Origin: a virus
Lineage: Duplodnaviria > Heunggongvirae > Uroviricota > Caudoviricetes
IMG/VR virus record: IMGVR_UViG_2698536449_000009
Length of the DNA: 5,850 bases
Reading direction: 5' to 3' (one strand)
A program made the position numbers and the translations under genes. Position 1 is the first letter of the stretch. Each line of letters begins with the position of its first letter. Shown piece by piece: positions 1-5,850 of the stretch. The notes under the pieces were generated by a model. The model made no database searches and had not been told where the DNA came from. It saw only the letters and a list, made by a program, of their open reading frames with translations.

Positions 1-2
1 TC

Positions 3-419
3 CAGTATCCGGATGGTAAGCCGCCGGTATGGGCAAAGTGTACGAAAGGTGTGTATCCGTCTTACTGGGAAGAATGGAAAAAAGTCAGGGAGGTGGTAAA
101 AGTTGCCTGTCCGGAGTGTGGCGGAAAGGGTGAGGTTTCCACCGCCTGTAAGGATTGCCGTGGGCGTGGTGTCGCCATTCATCGTGAAGAGTCGGTAAAA
201 CGTGGTATGCCTGTTATCAGAGACTGCCAGCGTTGTGGTGGTCGTGGCTATGAAAGACTACCATCAACGGAGGCATTTAATGCTATATGCGAGGTGACAA
301 ACCAGATAACACGCGCGTCATGGGAAAAAACAGTTAAGAAATTCTATGATGCGCTGGTGACTCGGTTTGATATTGAAGAAGCATGGGCTGAGCGGCAGTT
401 AAAAAAGGTAACTAGGTAA
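3..419 (+). CDS. Q: Antitermination protein Q, lambda family, C-terminal part (5' end lies upstream of the window)
   Basis: Frame is open from position 3 to TAA at 417-419. Translation has paired CxxC zinc-finger motifs (CPECGGKG...CKDCRGRG...CQRCGGRGY) and the C-terminal pattern TVKxxYDALV...VTR, which matches my recollection of lambda Q. Followed immediately by a PR'-like promoter and a terminator. Confidence 0.8.
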   Translation, partial: QYPDGKPPVWAKCTKGVYPSYWEEWKKVREVVKVACPECGGKGEVSTACKDCRGRGVAIHREESVKRGMPVIRDCQRCGGRGYERLPSTEAFNAICEVTNQITRASWEKTVKKFYDALVTRFDIEEAWAERQLKKVTR

Positions 420-424
420 CAAGG

Positions 425-452
425 TTGATTTTTCCGGAATCTGTGGTAAATT
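425..452 (+). promoter_or_regulatory. PR'-like late promoter (-35 TTGATT 425-430, 16-bp spacer, TG-extended -10 TAAATT 447-452)
   Basis: Hexamers and spacing read directly; it sits just after the Q stop as in lambdoid phages. The Q-binding (qut) site would overlap this region, which is an inference. Confidence 0.6.
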
Positions 453-458
453 CGTCAT

Positions 459-524
459 AACAATGGGCGTTTTATGCCTGACGTTAGAAGAGTTTCTACA
501 ACCCGCCGCCGAGCGGGTTTTTTA
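459..524 (+). ncRNA. Short PR'-initiated, tR'-terminated leader RNA of about 65-70 nt (lambda 6S / StxS-like)
   Basis: Predicted start about 7 nt after the -10, ending at the intrinsic terminator 501-524. Position and size resemble the short PR' transcripts described for lambdoid and Stx phages. Inferred from promoter and terminator only. Confidence 0.35.
501..524 (+). terminator. tR'-like intrinsic terminator
   Basis: Stem ACCCGC (501-506) / GCGGGT (513-518) with a 6-nt loop, followed by a T6 run. Confidence 0.7.
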
Positions 525-643
525 TGACTGAAATCGCGTCAGTACAGTAAACGCGCTGGTGGCGGTGAATACCTGTCTTTCAGCTTGCTGGCTTTTTCGA
601 CAAGAGTTATTGGTGTGTCACGTTAACCGGAAAAGGAAAAGAC

Positions 644-841
644 ATGCTAAAACAGCAGGATATGACAGAAACCGCCAGAGTGGTGTTTAATGAATTAAGC
701 GTTACCGAACCGGCGACAGTCGGGGAGATAGCGCAGAATACTTACCTTTCACGCGAACGCTGCCAGTTAATACTGACCCAGCTGGTTATGGCGGGTCTGG
801 CAGACTATCAGTTCGGTTGTTACAGACGCCTTCCGCAGTGA
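644..841 (+). CDS. Small hypothetical protein (65 aa), predicted winged-helix DNA-binding fold
   Basis: ATG at 644 has an AGGAAAAG Shine-Dalgarno-like sequence about 6 nt upstream. The pattern ...TVGEIAQNTYLSRERCQLILTQLVMAGLADYQ... looks like a helix-turn-helix recognition helix plus wing. Function not recognised. Confidence 0.5.
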   Translation: MLKQQDMTETARVVFNELSVTEPATVGEIAQNTYLSRERCQLILTQLVMAGLADYQFGCYRRLPQ

Positions 842-868
842 AGGCTTTTTTATTTGTGGTAAATGGGC

Positions 869-899
869 GGCTGGTGGGTGTTAGGGGCACCCACCAGCC
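869..899 (+). promoter_or_regulatory. Perfect 12-bp stem / 7-nt loop hairpin in the intergenic region upstream of the methyltransferase
   Basis: GGCTGGTGGGTG (869-880), loop TTAGGGG, CACCCACCAGCC (888-899). No U-tract follows, so it is not a canonical intrinsic terminator. Confidence 0.4.
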
Positions 900-991
900 A
901 TCTGCTCATGCGTTGGGTTCACAAGCAAACCTCAGGCCCACTGCTTTGCGCAAAAGCAGAATGAGCCTATCAGAGACAGGCTTAATGATCC

Positions 992-2050
992 ATGCTTAAT
1001 ACTGTAAAAATATCCAGTTGTGAGTTAATCAACGCCGACTGCCTGGAATTTATCCGGTCGTTACCCGAAAATTCTGTTGACCTGATAGTCACGGACCCGC
1101 CGTACTTTAAAGTGAAGCCTGAGGGCTGGGATAACCAGTGGAAGGGCGACGATGATTACCTGAAGTGGCTGGACCAGTGTCTGGCGCAGTTCTGGCGGGT
1201 GCTGAAACCTGCCGGAAGTCTTTACCTGTTCTGTGGTCATCGCCTGGCATCTGATATCGAAATCATGATGCGTGAACGCTTCAGTGTGCTGAACCATATT
1301 ATCTGGGCGAAGCCGTCCGGACGCTGGAACGGATGCAACAAGGAAAGCCTGCGGGCGTATTTCCCCGCCACAGAGCGCATTCTGTTCGCGGAACATTATC
1401 AGGGGCCGTATCGTCCGAAAGATGCCGGGTATGCGGCGAAGGGCAGTGCACTGAAACAGCATGTGATGGCCCCGCTGATTTCTTACTTTCGTGATGCGCG
1501 AGCTGCCCTGGGGATAACGGCAAAACAGATTGCAGATGCCACAGGAAAGAAAAACATGGTGTCGCACTGGTTCAGTGCCGGTCAGTGGCAGTTGCCGAAT
1601 GAAAGCGATTATCTGAAATTACAGGCGCTGTTTGCCCGGGTGGCAGAAGAGAAGCATCGGCGTGGTGAACTGGAAAAGCTCCACCACCAGCTGGTGGATA
1701 CGTATACCTCACTGAACCGGCAGTATGCGGAGCTGCTGAGTGAATATAAACATCTGCGGCGGTATTTTGGCGTGACGGTGCAGGTGCCGTATACCGATGT
1801 GTGGACGCATAAACCGGTGCAGTTCTATCCCGGGAAACATCCGTGCGAAAAACCGGCAGAAATGCTGCAGCAGATAATCAGCGCTAGCAGTCGTCCGGGT
1901 GACCTGATTGCAGATTTTTTCATGGGGTTGGGTTCGACAGTGAAAGCGGCACTGGCGCTCGGGCGTCGTGCAATTGGCGTTGAGCTGGAGACTGAACGTT
2001 TTGAGCAGACGGTTCGGGAAGTACAGGATTTAGTCAGCCAGAACGGATGA
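992..2050 (+). CDS. DNA methyltransferase, beta-class N6-adenine/N4-cytosine family (motif IV before motif I)
   Basis: N-terminal ...SVDLIVTDPPY (DPPY at nt 1094-1105), an HPCEKP motif, and a C-terminal AdoMet-binding FxGxG motif (DFFMGLGST), then GVELE. 352-aa ORF. No adjacent restriction endonuclease gene, so it looks like an orphan phage methylase. Confidence 0.9.
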   Translation: MLNTVKISSCELINADCLEFIRSLPENSVDLIVTDPPYFKVKPEGWDNQWKGDDDYLKWLDQCLAQFWRVLKPAGSLYLFCGHRLASDIEIMMRERFSVLNHIIWAKPSGRWNGCNKESLRAYFPATERILFAEHYQGPYRPKDAGYAAKGSALKQHVMAPLISYFRDARAALGITAKQIADATGKKNMVSHWFSAGQWQLPNESDYLKLQALFARVAEEKHRRGELEKLHHQLVDTYTSLNRQYAELLSEYKHLRRYFGVTVQVPYTDVWTHKPVQFYPGKHPCEKPAEMLQQIISASSRPGDLIADFFMGLGSTVKAALALGRRAIGVELETERFEQTVREVQDLVSQNG

Positions 2051-2090
2051 TATTGAAGAATTAATTACGCGTCGTTATTATGCGGCTCCC

Positions 2091-2125
2091 GGCCCTTTAG
2101 CTCAGTGGTGAGAGCGAGCGACTCA
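2091..2125 (+). pseudogene. tRNA-Ile 5' half (positions 1-35, ending in the anticodon loop), non-functional fragment
   Basis: 35 nt identical to the 5' part of the intact tRNA at 2298-2332, then an abrupt switch at 2126 into sequence identical to the Q 3' end (383 onward). Confidence 0.75.
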
Positions 2126-2159
2126 ATGGGCTGAGCGGCAGTTAAAAAAGGTAACTAGG

Positions 2160-2187
2160 TTGATTTTTCCGGAATCTGTGGTAAATT
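2160..2187 (+). promoter_or_regulatory. PR'-like promoter, second copy (-35 TTGATT 2160-2165, -10 TAAATT 2182-2187)
   Basis: Same hexamers and 16-bp spacer as the first copy; it lies upstream of the intact tRNA genes and the cargo ORF. Confidence 0.55.
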
Positions 2188-2235
2188 CGTCATAACTATG
2201 GGCGTTTTATGCCTGACGTTAGAAGAGTTTCTACA

Positions 2236-2259
2236 ACCCGCCGCCGAGCGGGTTTTTTA
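2236..2259 (+). terminator. tR'-like intrinsic terminator, second copy
   Basis: Same hairpin ACCCGC / GCGGGT followed by a T6 run. Confidence 0.65.
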
Positions 2260-2297
2260 TTGCGGAATTAATTACGGACCGTTATTATTCTGCTCCC

Positions 2298-2373
2298 GGC
2301 CCTTTAGCTCAGTGGTGAGAGCGAGCGACTCATAATCGCCAGGTCGCTGGTTCAAATCCAGCAAGGGCCACCA
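2298..2373 (+). tRNA. ileZ: tRNA-Ile, anticodon CAU (lysidine-type, reads AUA); phage ileZ-like
   Basis: 76 nt. Acceptor GGCCCTT / AAGGGCC, D-stem GCTC / GAGC, anticodon loop CTCATAA (CAT at 2331-2333), T-arm GCTGG-TTCAAAT-CCAGC, discriminator A and CCA. Close to E. coli tRNA-Ile2 as I recall it. Confidence 0.9.
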
Positions 2374-2473
2374 TCACAAACCGCCATTAGCTTATCAGGA
2401 AGAGCAGACGACACGATAACAGGGTTGTTGGTGCGGGGGCGGGTCCCCGATGGCGGTCCATTATCGGTATTCA

Positions 2474-2550
2474 GCGTTGTTAGCTCAGCCGGACAGAGCA
2501 ATTGCCTTCTAAGCAATCGGTCACTGGTTCGAATCCAGTACAGCGCGCCA
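2474..2550 (+). tRNA. argN: tRNA-Arg, anticodon UCU (reads AGA/AGG); phage argN/argO-like
   Basis: 77 nt. Acceptor GCGTTGT / ACAGCGC (one G-U pair), D-arm GCTC...GAGC, anticodon stem ATTGC / GCAAT with loop CTTCTAA (TCT at 2508-2510), T-arm ACTGG-TTCGAAT-CCAGT, discriminator G and CCA. Confidence 0.9.
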
Positions 2551-2687
2551 TATTCATTCTTCCAGATTCCTTCCGGCAGAGCCTTATACTGAAATATACC
2601 TGGCTCAGGATATTGTTGAAAATATTTTATGTTTGTCAAAAATAAAAGTTCTGTTAAGTATTGATTGAGTGTTTGTTATACGGTCTA

Positions 2688-3014
2688 ATGGTTTTTTCAG
2701 CATTAAATATTTATCATTCATATGGTGTGGGTAGAGTGAATATTGATGAGGCGTCGGGGTGTTTCATCCTTAGGCAGCGTATTGATATAGTCAATGCAGC
2801 ACGAGCAAAGGCCTTCAGCCGTTTGACAGTTTTGTTCTGTACTCCTGATCGTCTTTCGGGAAGAGACGTTATTATTCTGAATAGTGATGCTATACAGAGG
2901 GTTTGCGATGAGTTCATGGTTGCTAATTCAGAATTATTTGCTCTTGTTCAGGAGTACAACAGAATAGCCAGGACCTGTGGTATGGATGAACTTCGGATTA
3001 CTCATCTGGGGTAG
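2688..3014 (+). CDS. Hypothetical cargo (moron) protein, about 108 aa from ATG 2688; the frame is open from 2661
   Basis: AT-rich ORF directly downstream of the tRNAs and on the same strand, in the position Stx phages use for stxAB. By my count 6 of 12 Arg codons are AGA/AGG and 3 Ile codons are ATA. No clear Shine-Dalgarno, so the start is uncertain (ATG 2688 or GTG 2736). No recognisable family. Confidence 0.45.
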   Translation: MVFSALNIYHSYGVGRVNIDEASGCFILRQRIDIVNAARAKAFSRLTVLFCTPDRLSGRDVIILNSDAIQRVCDEFMVANSELFALVQEYNRIARTCGMDELRITHLG

Positions 3015-3066
3015 ATACATATCTGGATTATCACCTGTTACGGTAAAAAGTGATTGCTTACTGTTT

Positions 3067-3096
3067 TTGTGAATGGCATTGCAGCAGCCGGATAAT
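3067..3096 (+). promoter_or_regulatory. Candidate sigma70 promoter (-35 TTGTGA 3067-3072, 18-bp spacer, -10 GATAAT 3091-3096)
   Basis: Hexamers read directly. Predicted start near 3103 at the beginning of the 307-bp repeat, giving a roughly 325-nt transcript to the terminator at 3407-3429. Speculative. Confidence 0.25.
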
Positions 3097-3118
3097 GTCA
3101 GTGCTGGCTGACGGTGTG

Positions 3119-3425
3119 CTGGTGGCGGGTGTGGTGGTTGTTGCTTTCCCGTTGCTGAAAAAGAAAACGCCAGACTGTTAGCCGGGTATCAGTTAGCGGG
3201 AGAAATTTTTAAATACTTCACAATTCAGGCGGTTGACTGTTGTCTGGTTTGCGGGGAGTTTGTTAAAAGAAACTGGCATGGTGAATCCCCCTGTGCGGAG
3301 GGGCAATCAGCGAGTAGGTATATGGGATAATCGCGGATTCAGGTGCTGGTACTGAATTCACCGGGAGGCACCCGGCATCATGCAATGGCACATAGCGCCA
3401 CTCTCCAGCCCTCTCCGGAGGGGCT
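3119..3425 (+). repeat. 307-bp direct repeat, copy 1 (structured, ends in an intrinsic terminator)
   Basis: About 99% identical to 4754-5061 (one substitution, one 1-bp indel). Contains several hairpins and no ORF with a start codon spanning it. Confidence 0.9.
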
Positions 3426-3429
3426 TTTC
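3407..3429 (+). terminator. Intrinsic terminator at the end of repeat copy 1
   Basis: AGCCCTC - TCCG - GAGGGGCT (one-base bulge) followed by TTTTC. Confidence 0.6.
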
Positions 3430-3657
3430 TGTGCCGGATACATCACAGTTTCTGGAACCTTAGGTACTACAGTATCAGTCAGGGTGCTATATTTTCAGAT
3501 GTGATGAAAGCCTGTCAGCAGGCAGGGCGTATCGGAAATGACCCAGTAGAGAAAACGTTGACTCAGATACCGGTGCTGAGTTACCGGGAAACCGGCATCA
3601 CATGACCGCTATCCTGAGGTGTACTGGCAATAGCGGACACTACCATTTGTTCTTTTT

Positions 3658-4476
3658 TTAAGCAGCCATCTGATGATATTTTTCCCTGAAGGCTGCCGGG
3701 GAGATATTCCCCAGACGAGAGTGACGACGCTGACGATTGTAGAAAATCTCAATGTATTCCCGTATTACTGAGATGGCTTCATCCCGGTTATTAAAACGAT
3801 AGTGGCTCAGGCTCTCATTTTTCAGCGTTCCCCAGAAGCTTTCCATCGGAGCGTTGTCGTAACAGTTACCTTTACGCGACATTGATGTTTTCAGACCAGA
3901 CTGCTCCTGTATGACCCGGTAATCGTATGCGCAGTACTGTGAACCTCGATCAGAGTGGTGGATTAGCCCGGCAGGTGGGCGCTGGCTCCTGAGCGCCATA
4001 AACAGGGCTTTACCTGTCAGCTCTTTTGTCATGCGCTCTCCCATGGCGTAGCCGACAATTTCGCACGTATAAACATCTTTGATGCCAGCGAGGTACAACC
4101 ATCCCTCCTGTGTGGCAACATACGTCAGGTCCGCCACCCAGACCTGATTTGGTGCTGTAGGAGCGAACGTCTGGTTCAGCAGATTTGGCGCAACTGGCAG
4201 ATTGTGGTTCGAGTTCGTAGTCGCTCTGAACTTGCGTTTCTGCTTACAGCGTAGCCTTAGCTCCTTACGAAGACGTGCCAGTCGGTCACGACCAACGATG
4301 ATGCCATTCTCTGCCAGCTCCGTCTGGAGCCGCCGGGTTCCATATGTTTCGCGAGTGCGGATATGTGCCACCTTAATCTCCAGTTTTAGCCGCTCATCAC
4401 TTTGTTTTCTGTCTGAGGGTTCATGCTGTACCCAGTTGTAATAACCGCTCCTGGATACACCAAATACCTGACACAT
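3658..4476 (-). CDS. IS3-family transposase OrfB (DDE integrase domain); in vivo made as an OrfAB fusion by -1 frameshift
   Basis: 272-aa ORF starting MCQVFGVSRSGYYNW and containing HSDRGSQY and SMSRKGNCYDNAPMESF motifs. The orfB frame stays open upstream to the A7 slippery site. Confidence 0.9.
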   Translation of the reverse strand: MCQVFGVSRSGYYNWVQHEPSDRKQSDERLKLEIKVAHIRTRETYGTRRLQTELAENGIIVGRDRLARLRKELRLRCKQKRKFRATTNSNHNLPVAPNLLNQTFAPTAPNQVWVADLTYVATQEGWLYLAGIKDVYTCEIVGYAMGERMTKELTGKALFMALRSQRPPAGLIHHSDRGSQYCAYDYRVIQEQSGLKTSMSRKGNCYDNAPMESFWGTLKNESLSHYRFNNRDEAISVIREYIEIFYNRQRRHSRLGNISPAAFREKYHQMAA

Positions 4477-4511
4477 CGCTTCAATGGGAAATTGTTGTCG
4501 CCATTGTTCGA

Positions 4512-4753
4512 TTAACGCGTATTTTTCAGCGACTCCTGTGCAAAATACGCTGTTGCTTTTTTTAATATATCTCGCTCAAGGCGAGCTTCATTTAACGCCT
4601 TACGCAGTTGCAGAATTTCAGATTCCAGTTCAGCCACCGTGCGGGAACCAGGAGTACCGAGCCCTTTTCTGGCGGCGGTAACCCATTGTCCTAAAGTGCC
4701 TTCAGGAAGAGATAATCGGGAAGCGCCTTCACTGATCGAAAGTTGATTTTCAA
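4512..4753 (-). pseudogene. IS600-like orfA, 5'-truncated (no start codon, N-terminal DNA-binding region lost)
   Basis: orfA frame ends at TAA (forward 4512-4514). Upstream the frame runs into the 307-bp repeat without a plausible start codon. Confidence 0.75.
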
Positions 4754-5061
4754 CTGGTGGCGGGTGTGGTGGTTGTTGCTTTCCCGTTGCTGAAAAAGAA
4801 AACGCCAGACTGTTAGCCGGGTATCAGTTAGCGGGAGAAATTTTTAAATACTTCACAATTCAGGCGGTTGACTGTTGTCTGGTTTGCGGGGAGTTTGTTA
4901 AAAGAAACTGGCATGGTGAATCCCCCTGTGCGGAGGGGCAATCAGCGAGTAGGTATATGGGATAATCGCGGATTCAGGTGCTGGTACTGAATTCACCGGG
5001 AGGCACCCGGCACCATGCAATGGCACATAGCGCCACTCTCCAGCCCCTCTCCGGAGGGGCT
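4754..5061 (+). repeat. 307-bp direct repeat, copy 2
   Basis: Begins exactly where IS identity stops (4753/4754) and ends at the terminator hairpin. Confidence 0.9.
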
Positions 5062-5069
5062 GTTTATAT
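5042..5069 (+). terminator. Terminator hairpin at the end of repeat copy 2; possibly bidirectional
   Basis: Perfect 8-bp stem AGCCCCTC / GAGGGGCT with loop TCCG, followed by GTTTATATT. The stop of the convergent minus-strand gene is about 30 nt away on the other side. Confidence 0.5.
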
Positions 5070-5096
5070 TGATTTTGTCAGATGTGAGTAAACTCC

Positions 5097-5432
5097 TTAT
5101 GGACTTTGTTGTTTTAGTCCATAAGGACATATTTGCAGAGTGCAACGGTTATTAAAGCATTCATTCAATACGTTATCTGTATTTGTAGGGCATTCCTGGC
5201 TATTTTTGATTGAATTCCAGAATGTTTTATTGAATGGTACTACGTTGTAAATGGTTACAGGTAGCACTTTGTTATTGAGCATGATGCCTGTGTGAGTCAG
5301 TGTAAATATACTTTCAGGAGGTAAGAAAGCATCCGATTGATACCAGATTATTAATTTTATTTTACTCCATATGACTGAAAAAGATATTCCGCATGATGGC
5401 TGGATAACTGTATCAATCACAATCCACTTCAT
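5097..5432 (-). CDS. Hypothetical protein (111 aa), AT-rich orphan moron gene convergent to the late operon
   Basis: Strong Shine-Dalgarno on the minus strand (AAGGAAACTAA then ATG). Five cysteines, Asn/Ile/Lys-rich. About 260 bp of AT-rich sequence upstream with candidate -10 TATACT (forward 5473-5478). No family recognised. Confidence 0.55.
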
Positions 5433-5692
5433 TTAGTTTCCTTGTTTATGCCTTGCTGGTGATGTTCTGAAAAGTATAAATGATATTTTTGAATGTAAAC
5501 CATAGAGCAGAATTATTTTTCTGATGTTGTTTATTGTTTATTTAAATGCAGGGTGGTTTATATCTCGTCTTGTAGTTTATCCATGCATATCTGCTTGATA
5601 ATCAGGTTTTTATTTAAGGTATGGTTTTGTGTTTTTTCTGTATTACATGTCAGGTATTTTAAAGAATTATTTTTCAGATGGTGGAAAGAACC

Positions 5693-5819
5693 ATGGCATT
5701 TAAACACTATGATGTTGTCAGGGCGGCGCCGCCGTCAGATCTTGCGGAAAAGCTGACACATAAACTGAAAGAGGGCTGGCAGCCGTTTGGTAGTCCGGTG
5801 GCCATAACCCCTTATACCC
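5693..5819 (+). pseudogene. 5' part of a small conserved lambdoid late-region gene, interrupted by IS insertion at 5820
   Basis: ATG at 5693 encodes MAFKHYDVVRAAPPSDLAEKLTHKLKEGWQPFGSPVAITPYT, then the IS end TGAGGTG... begins. I recall this N-terminus from small proteins just upstream of holin genes in E. coli prophages (DUF1737-like, from memory only). Confidence 0.55.
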
Positions 5820-5850
5820 TGAGGTGTACTGGCAATAGCGGACACTACCA
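5820..5850 (-). mobile_element. Terminal 31 bp of a second IS600-like copy, same orientation as the first; continues beyond the window
   Basis: Identical to 3615-3645 (TGAGGTGTACTGGCAATAGCGGACACTACCA). Confidence 0.75.

Follow-up and report, generated by a model that had tools for sequence, protein, structure and literature searches.

[quoted passage not shown] The identity of the gene, its promoter and its context are established. This particular copy is predicted from its sequence to be expressed and active, and it is expected to bind RssB and stabilize sigma-S on the strength of published results with CFT073 IraL and with an S. sonnei deletion. RssB binding, the effect on RpoS half-life and the transcript start have been demonstrated elsewhere, for a protein differing by one residue or for the S. 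sonnei gene. As a discovery, iraL here matters little, since a 2014 publication already covers the gene, its product, its RssB partner, its promoter and its phenotype, and a crystal structure exists for the family. The features around the gene are as follows.

4882-5071, plus strand: STnc100 sRNA gene (Rfam RF02076; cmscan 132.4 bits, gathering score 47, model positions 1-206)
5041-5062, plus strand: hairpin with T-run, the STnc100 intrinsic terminator (9-bp stem, 7 G-C pairs), 34 nt past the iraL stop
5097-5432, minus strand: iraL coding sequence, 111 aa, ATG start; RssB anti-adaptor of the IraM/IraL/RssC family
5433-5465, minus strand: 5'UTR of 33 nt, +1 at 5465 (published 5'-RACE sequence)
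5443-5439, minus strand: Shine-Dalgarno AAGGA, 6 nt before the ATG and inside the published 5'UTR (PMC4045071)
5473-5499, minus strand: sigma-70-type promoter, with inferred -35 TTTACA (5499-5494), 15-nt spacer and -10 TATACT (5478-5473)
5433-5692, no strand: AT-rich intergenic region (29.6% GC) separating the divergent iraL and DUF1737 genes and holding the iraL promoter
5693-5818, plus strand: 5' part of the DUF1737 gene (translation MAFKHYDVV...), first gene on the late/lysis side, interrupted by the end of an IS600 copy
5819-5850, no strand: IS600 terminus, 32 nt (TGAGGTGTACTGGCAATAGCGGACACTACCA...); the same terminus also stands at 3614-3645

Gene identity and family

The ATG start and 111-aa length given in the original prediction held, and the protein matched the NCBI curated 'anti-adapter protein IraM' model, NF007393, at 162 bits, above its cut-off of 121. 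Residues 1-110 align to model positions 1-113/114, a full-length match, so the ORF is not a fragment of a larger disrupted gene, a possibility that had been raised for it. Residues 1-78 matched the IraM(1-78) chain of PDB entry 8TWD (phmmer, chain 8twd_A, E 6e-31), which identifies a PmrD-like N-terminal domain. The protein is 61% identical to K-12 IraM over 107 aa, gap-free, and IraL is the name given to the ~60%-identical IraM paralogue of uropathogenic E. coli and Shigella (Hryckowian et al. 2014, PMC4045071). CFT073 IraL agrees with the window protein at 110/111 aa, the sole change being L74S. The coding sequences agree at 334/336 nt (99.4%; differences at 5212 and 5202), and the 681-nt iraL locus shows 6 differences between the window and CFT073. 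Hryckowian et al. (2014) assign genes to iraL if they share ≥95% of their nucleotides with CFT073 iraL across the full coding sequence and are ≥96% identical to the CFT073 upstream region from -100 to +1. The window gene lies above the first threshold, and within 5466-5565 it carries one upstream difference (5466, position -1). It also lies in a lambdoid prophage, unlike the K-12 iraM locus, which is next to e14/icdC.

The best matches of the window's iraL prophage are in Shigella sonnei. The S. sonnei allele, present in 53G and many further assemblies, encodes the window protein without any change, and positions 4754-5850 are 100% identical to finished S. sonnei iraL loci, where they are contiguous. 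RefSeq applies the label 'anti-adapter protein IraM' to the same DNA in 1446/5426 complete E. coli genomes, and its location there is almost always chromosomal. A current Pfam-A scan of the window protein gave no significant family, only a sub-threshold Nairovirus NSm hit (E 0.056), whereas PF11183 (PmrD) is precomputed for the same protein in large protein collections; the discrepancy is probably a difference between Pfam versions.

The ORF had been described as an orphan with no nameable family, and the homology check turned up a named, characterized family instead, of which it is a clear member (NF007393, 8TWD, CFT073 IraL). We therefore give practically no credence to a novel orphan lysogenic-conversion gene with its own terminator, such as a toxin, a phage-exclusion factor or a virulence factor. 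The low-GC cassette, the promoter of its own, the orientation against the late genes and the Pfam-A result would suit such a gene; the curated-model, PDB and literature matches, the precomputed PF11183 assignment and a hairpin that is in fact that of STnc100 all speak against it.

Expression signals of iraL

The 260-bp upstream region was correctly described as AT-rich: GC content is 29.6% in 5433-5692 and 34.5% in the ORF, compared with 49.5% over positions 1-5040. Read from position 5465 on the minus strand, the window reproduces the published 5'-RACE sequence, ACATCACCAGCAAGGCATAAACAAGGAAACCA, with a single mismatch; CFT073 reproduces it with none. Sigma-70 -10 and -35 elements were predicted for iraL, and its transcript start was determined by 5' RACE in CFT073 (PMC4045071); from that prediction and the sequence, we infer TTTACA and TATACT as the hexamers, and both are undamaged in the window copy. 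A simple promoter scan (spacer range 16-18) did not pick up this promoter because the real spacer is 15 nt, and it was placed through the published RACE sequence instead. Single-base changes relative to CFT073 fall at 5466 (promoter position -1) and 5435 (5'UTR). The Shine-Dalgarno sequence, previously called textbook, is present as AAGGA at the proper place but is good rather than textbook.

The promoter mapped in CFT073 (PMC4045071) bears out the functional class originally proposed, an autonomously expressed lysogen gene. By way of calibration, a small, convergent ORF of low GC that occupies the cargo slot between the Q and lysis genes of a lambdoid prophage was in this case a genuine lysogen-physiology gene. 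With 100 bp of its own upstream DNA, iraL raises log-phase sigma-S in K-12 (PMC4045071). In strain JJ1886, the TTTACA -35 element of the second iraL copy is damaged by a 1-nt lesion, which agrees with a remark on a -35 mutation in the same study (PMC4045071). IraL is more abundant in a CFT073 fur mutant (PMC7157518), and iraL mRNA rises by 1.6 log2 in CFT073 on a shift to 37 degrees C (PMC12890032).

The hairpin and the sRNA STnc100

A hairpin does lie just past the iraL stop, as the original prediction had it, but it is not the gene's own terminator. The terminal stem of RF02076 aligns to 5041-5062 and the U-tail of the model to the T-run, which makes the stem the end of STnc100. A terminator-like site was found at the hairpin on the plus strand only, where alone a T-run follows. 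Fold energies indicate that the stem can still form on the iraL strand, where GAGAGUGG comes next instead of U's. A bidirectional terminator, with the stem stopping iraL transcripts as well, finds no support in the sequence, as the minus strand has no U-run. A second STnc100 copy at 3247-3436 (plus strand; 122 bits, gathering score 47) contains a near-copy of the hairpin at 3405-3428, and no iraL follows it. The apparent terminator of such an ORF can thus belong to a neighbouring sRNA on the opposite strand.

iraL and STnc100 are convergent, with 3' ends ~25 nt apart. If iraL transcription passes the stem, the iraL 3'UTR would be antisense to STnc100, a recognized prophage sRNA related to PasD (bioRxiv 10.64898/2026.05.13.724894) that sits 75 nt downstream of stx2 in Stx2 phages (PMC12370729). 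A weaker idea concerns the opposite direction: Q-dependent late transcription must cross the STnc100 terminator and would then run antisense over iraL, so that induction would silence iraL by transcriptional interference.

RssB contacts, proposed function and comparison with IraM

The IraM-RssB crystal structure (8TWD, PMC10844676) has three contact clusters and an N-terminal PmrD-like beta-barrel, and since the IraM alignment is gap-free, residue positions in the window protein correspond one to one. In cluster I, which contacts the RssB N-domain (I4, I6, W22, K26, I42), 5/5 residues are identical. Cluster II, with the C-domain contacts, retains 3/5 (T13S and L75I in the window protein), and cluster III, with the contacts to the linker and helix alpha-8, retains 2/4 (H63N and I64V). 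Conservation of cluster I together with partial change in clusters II and III would fit the N-domain-only binding reported for IraL. An AlphaFold2 model from a 14-sequence alignment (mean pLDDT 53, tail < 35) showed seven strands and a helix at 69-76, consistent at low confidence with a PmrD-like domain; it is poor and therefore says nothing about the geometry of the four tail cysteines discussed below.

Published work on IraL gives a consistent picture. Deletion of iraL lowers log-phase sigma-S in CFT073 and in S. sonnei, and in CFT073 it shortens the sigma-S half-life from ~5 to ~2.5 min; IraL co-purifies with RssB, and in two-hybrid assays it binds the N-terminal receiver domain of RssB only (PMC4045071). 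By extension to the window copy, iraL would have its own sigma-70-type promoter (start 5465) driving transcription while the lysogen grows exponentially, and the PmrD-like beta-barrel N-terminal domain of the 111-aa product would bind RssB, a response-regulator-type adaptor. RssB occupied by IraL would not hand over sigma-S (RpoS) to the ClpXP protease, RpoS would be stabilized, and the general stress regulon would be partly on even in log phase.

K-12 IraM (b1160) has the same family, fold and length as the window protein and has in common with it four tail cysteines and all five RssB N-domain contacts. The two differ in deployment: Mg2+ starvation induces IraM, which makes contact with both domains of RssB, whereas IraL acts in log phase and bound the N-domain only in two-hybrid assays. 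We regard it as very unlikely that the window gene is a functional orthologue of K-12 iraM, that is, activated by PhoP, induced by Mg2+ starvation and contacting both RssB domains. The NCBIfam and RefSeq names, both IraM, and the 61% identity would agree with that, as would a PhoP-box-like direct repeat, TGTTTATTGTTTATTTA, at 5528-5544 (plus strand), 63-79 nt upstream of the iraL start. However, the upstream regions of iraL and iraM are not alignable, so the homologous PhoP-controlled upstream region that would mark a K-12-type iraM is absent. The PhoP-like match (1 mismatch) is compatible with chance, as at least one match occurred in 26/200 shuffles of the AT-rich DNA, and the same consensus misses the genuine iraM locus; on both counts, we discarded the repeat as evidence. 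Log-phase sigma-70 expression, N-domain-only RssB binding and the separation of iraL and iraM into sequence groups without overlap (PMC4045071) argue in the same direction, as do the partly substituted C-domain and linker contact clusters. The RefSeq label 'IraM' on iraL masks a paralogue with different regulation.

The C-terminal cysteine tail

The five cysteines noted earlier were confirmed at residues 14, 81, 92, 97 and 102. Four of them form the tail pattern C81-P, x10, C92, x4, C97, x4, C102-P-Y-G (residues 81-111; window 5097-5192, minus strand), and Cys14 is not conserved in the family. The four tail cysteines are invariant among 14 close homologues. In a set of 47 full-length Enterobacteriaceae representatives, each <50% identical to the others, these cysteines, W72 and P103 are the most conserved positions (46-47/47), exceeding every RssB-contact residue except W30 (44/47), and the residues between the tail cysteines vary freely. 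Another 18 representatives are without the tail, and most of these look frameshifted or truncated.

We tentatively raise the possibility, which we hold to be less probable than its opposite, that the four cysteines, instead of belonging to a flexible tail that can be dispensed with, make up a conserved metal-binding or redox-sensitive module. Such a module could govern how stable or how active the anti-adaptor is. Residues 79-107 of IraM were removed for the crystal and the tail was described as less conserved and flexible (PMC10844676); the tail was cut off because full-length IraM was proteolysed. Structural work may have overlooked the pattern because the crystal used residues 1-78 and the tail was called less conserved. 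A literature search for cysteine or zinc in papers on the IraM, IraL and RssC anti-adaptors returned nothing relevant; its coverage was incomplete, and it is weak evidence.

Prophage context and state of the window copy

The gene order in the CFT073, 042 and JJ1886 prophages is Q antiterminator, tRNAs, DUF3927, (STnc100), iraL on the minus strand, DUF1737, holin and lysozyme, so the neighbourhood is conserved, one of the checks originally proposed. The window order matches that of the CFT073 potB prophage (Q, tRNAs, DUF3927, iraL on the minus strand, DUF1737, holin). As had been noted, iraL is directed against the late operon, opposed to the plus-strand DUF1737, holin and lysis genes. Its cassette (5066-5692) stands out with a GC content of 32%, compared with 49.5% over positions 1-5040, and iraL is thus a moron, a low-GC cargo cassette between STnc100 and the DUF1737/lysis genes of a lambdoid prophage. 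A tblastn search for an iraL remnant in the iraL-less prophage found none. CFT073 iraL (c1429, WP_000871291.1) has the same promoter, transcript start, 5'UTR and Shine-Dalgarno as the window gene and the same neighbours, STnc100/DUF3927 on one side and DUF1737/holin on the other, in a lambdoid prophage; the window differs in L74S, in the changes at 5466 and 5435, in the IS600-cut DUF1737 gene and in the rearranged prophage.

Past 5818, the alignment with strains 042 and JJ1886 diverges. S. sonnei loci likewise encode a 57-aa DUF1737 product abutting an IS3-family element, and IS600 is annotated at 100% identity on S. sonnei plasmids. A second IS600 copy, at 3614-4753, is missing ~120 nt at one end, including the orfA start. 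Because the DUF1737 gene is cut by IS600, the prophage is probably defective.

The window also alternates between two S. sonnei prophages, one of methylase/nanS type and one of iraL type: positions 1-2125 and 3206-4753 match the former, and 2126-3428 and 4754-5850 the latter. Both joints are non-homologous. The first (2125/2126) cuts a tRNA within its anticodon loop, and the sequence resumes at the Q gene 3' end. The second (4753/4754) leads from the IS600 interior into the middle of DUF3927, and it creates a perfect 293-nt direct repeat (3119-3411 = 4754-5046). Neither joint turned up in a public contig, and a query across the second (4734-4772) had no match in GTDB representative genomes or JGI metagenomes. 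The mosaic may reflect either a rearrangement peculiar to the strain or a chimeric assembly, and its joints leave iraL, its promoter and STnc100 untouched. Duplicated segments also flank a DNA adenine-methyltransferase module (992-2050) and a 65-aa ORF (644-841), namely the Q gene 3' end (383-532 and 2126-2267) and the lead into tRNA-Met (2051-2125 and 2258-2332).

Given this state of the prophage, we considered whether the window copy could be a decaying, non-functional allele in an IS-ridden defective prophage, possibly within a chimeric assembly. Apart from the IS600-cut DUF1737 gene and the mosaic, the substitutions at 5466 and 5435 would be in keeping with decay, as would L74S, which adjoins contact residue 75 at a site that is hydrophobic, Leu or Ile, in all close relatives. 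More remote family members show a different pattern at position 74, with Ser in 7/47 representatives and Thr in 12/47. Furthermore, the ORF is full length, the -10 and -35 hexamers are intact, the same allele has become fixed across many S. sonnei genomes (4016 index blocks), and the published S. sonnei iraL deletion lowers sigma-S (PMC4045071). A decaying allele therefore appears highly improbable, and we retain the reading of the window gene as a probably working iraL.

Imperfect repeats of the form ATTTT(G/T)(T)CAGATG(T/G)G bracket the iraL cassette (5072-5092 and 5670-5689), with another at 5509-5529. A repeat at 3489-3509 likewise precedes the first ORF after STnc100 in the iraL-less copy. 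The bracketing repeats may be module-junction or insertion scars.

Relatives in other Enterobacteriaceae and in Stx2 phages

Salmonella RssC and other Enterobacteriaceae 'IraM' proteins belong to the same family by profile search and have the same length and the same four-cysteine tail, at <50% identity; rssC is reported to be 49% identical to iraL (PMC4045071). The taxa include Salmonella, Citrobacter, Enterobacter, Kosakonia, Pantoea, Phytobacter and Franconibacter. According to the IraM structure paper, PmrD, the connector protein protecting phospho-PmrA, shares the beta-barrel fold of the N-terminal domain. Both proteins bind a response-regulator receiver domain; PmrD is, however, ~85 aa long, lacks the four-cysteine tail and targets PmrA, not RssB.

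An IraM-like ORF of Stx2 phages ('iraM' in LC567829.1) is 71-73% identical to the window protein. We found no functional data on this variant. It occupies the same slot in the same orientation, convergent with and just downstream of stx2/STnc100 and upstream of nanS-p/holin (PMC12370729). In the Stx2a phage LC567829, the same Q, methylase and tRNA module precedes stx2 as in the window; the ORF there, 73% identical, directly follows stx2AB, whereas the window has a 117-aa ORF and DUF3927 in that place. In Stx2a and Stx2c phage records (e.g. NC_049944.1, AP012530.1, LC7278xx) the homologue, which lies just downstream of stx2, mostly has no annotated feature.
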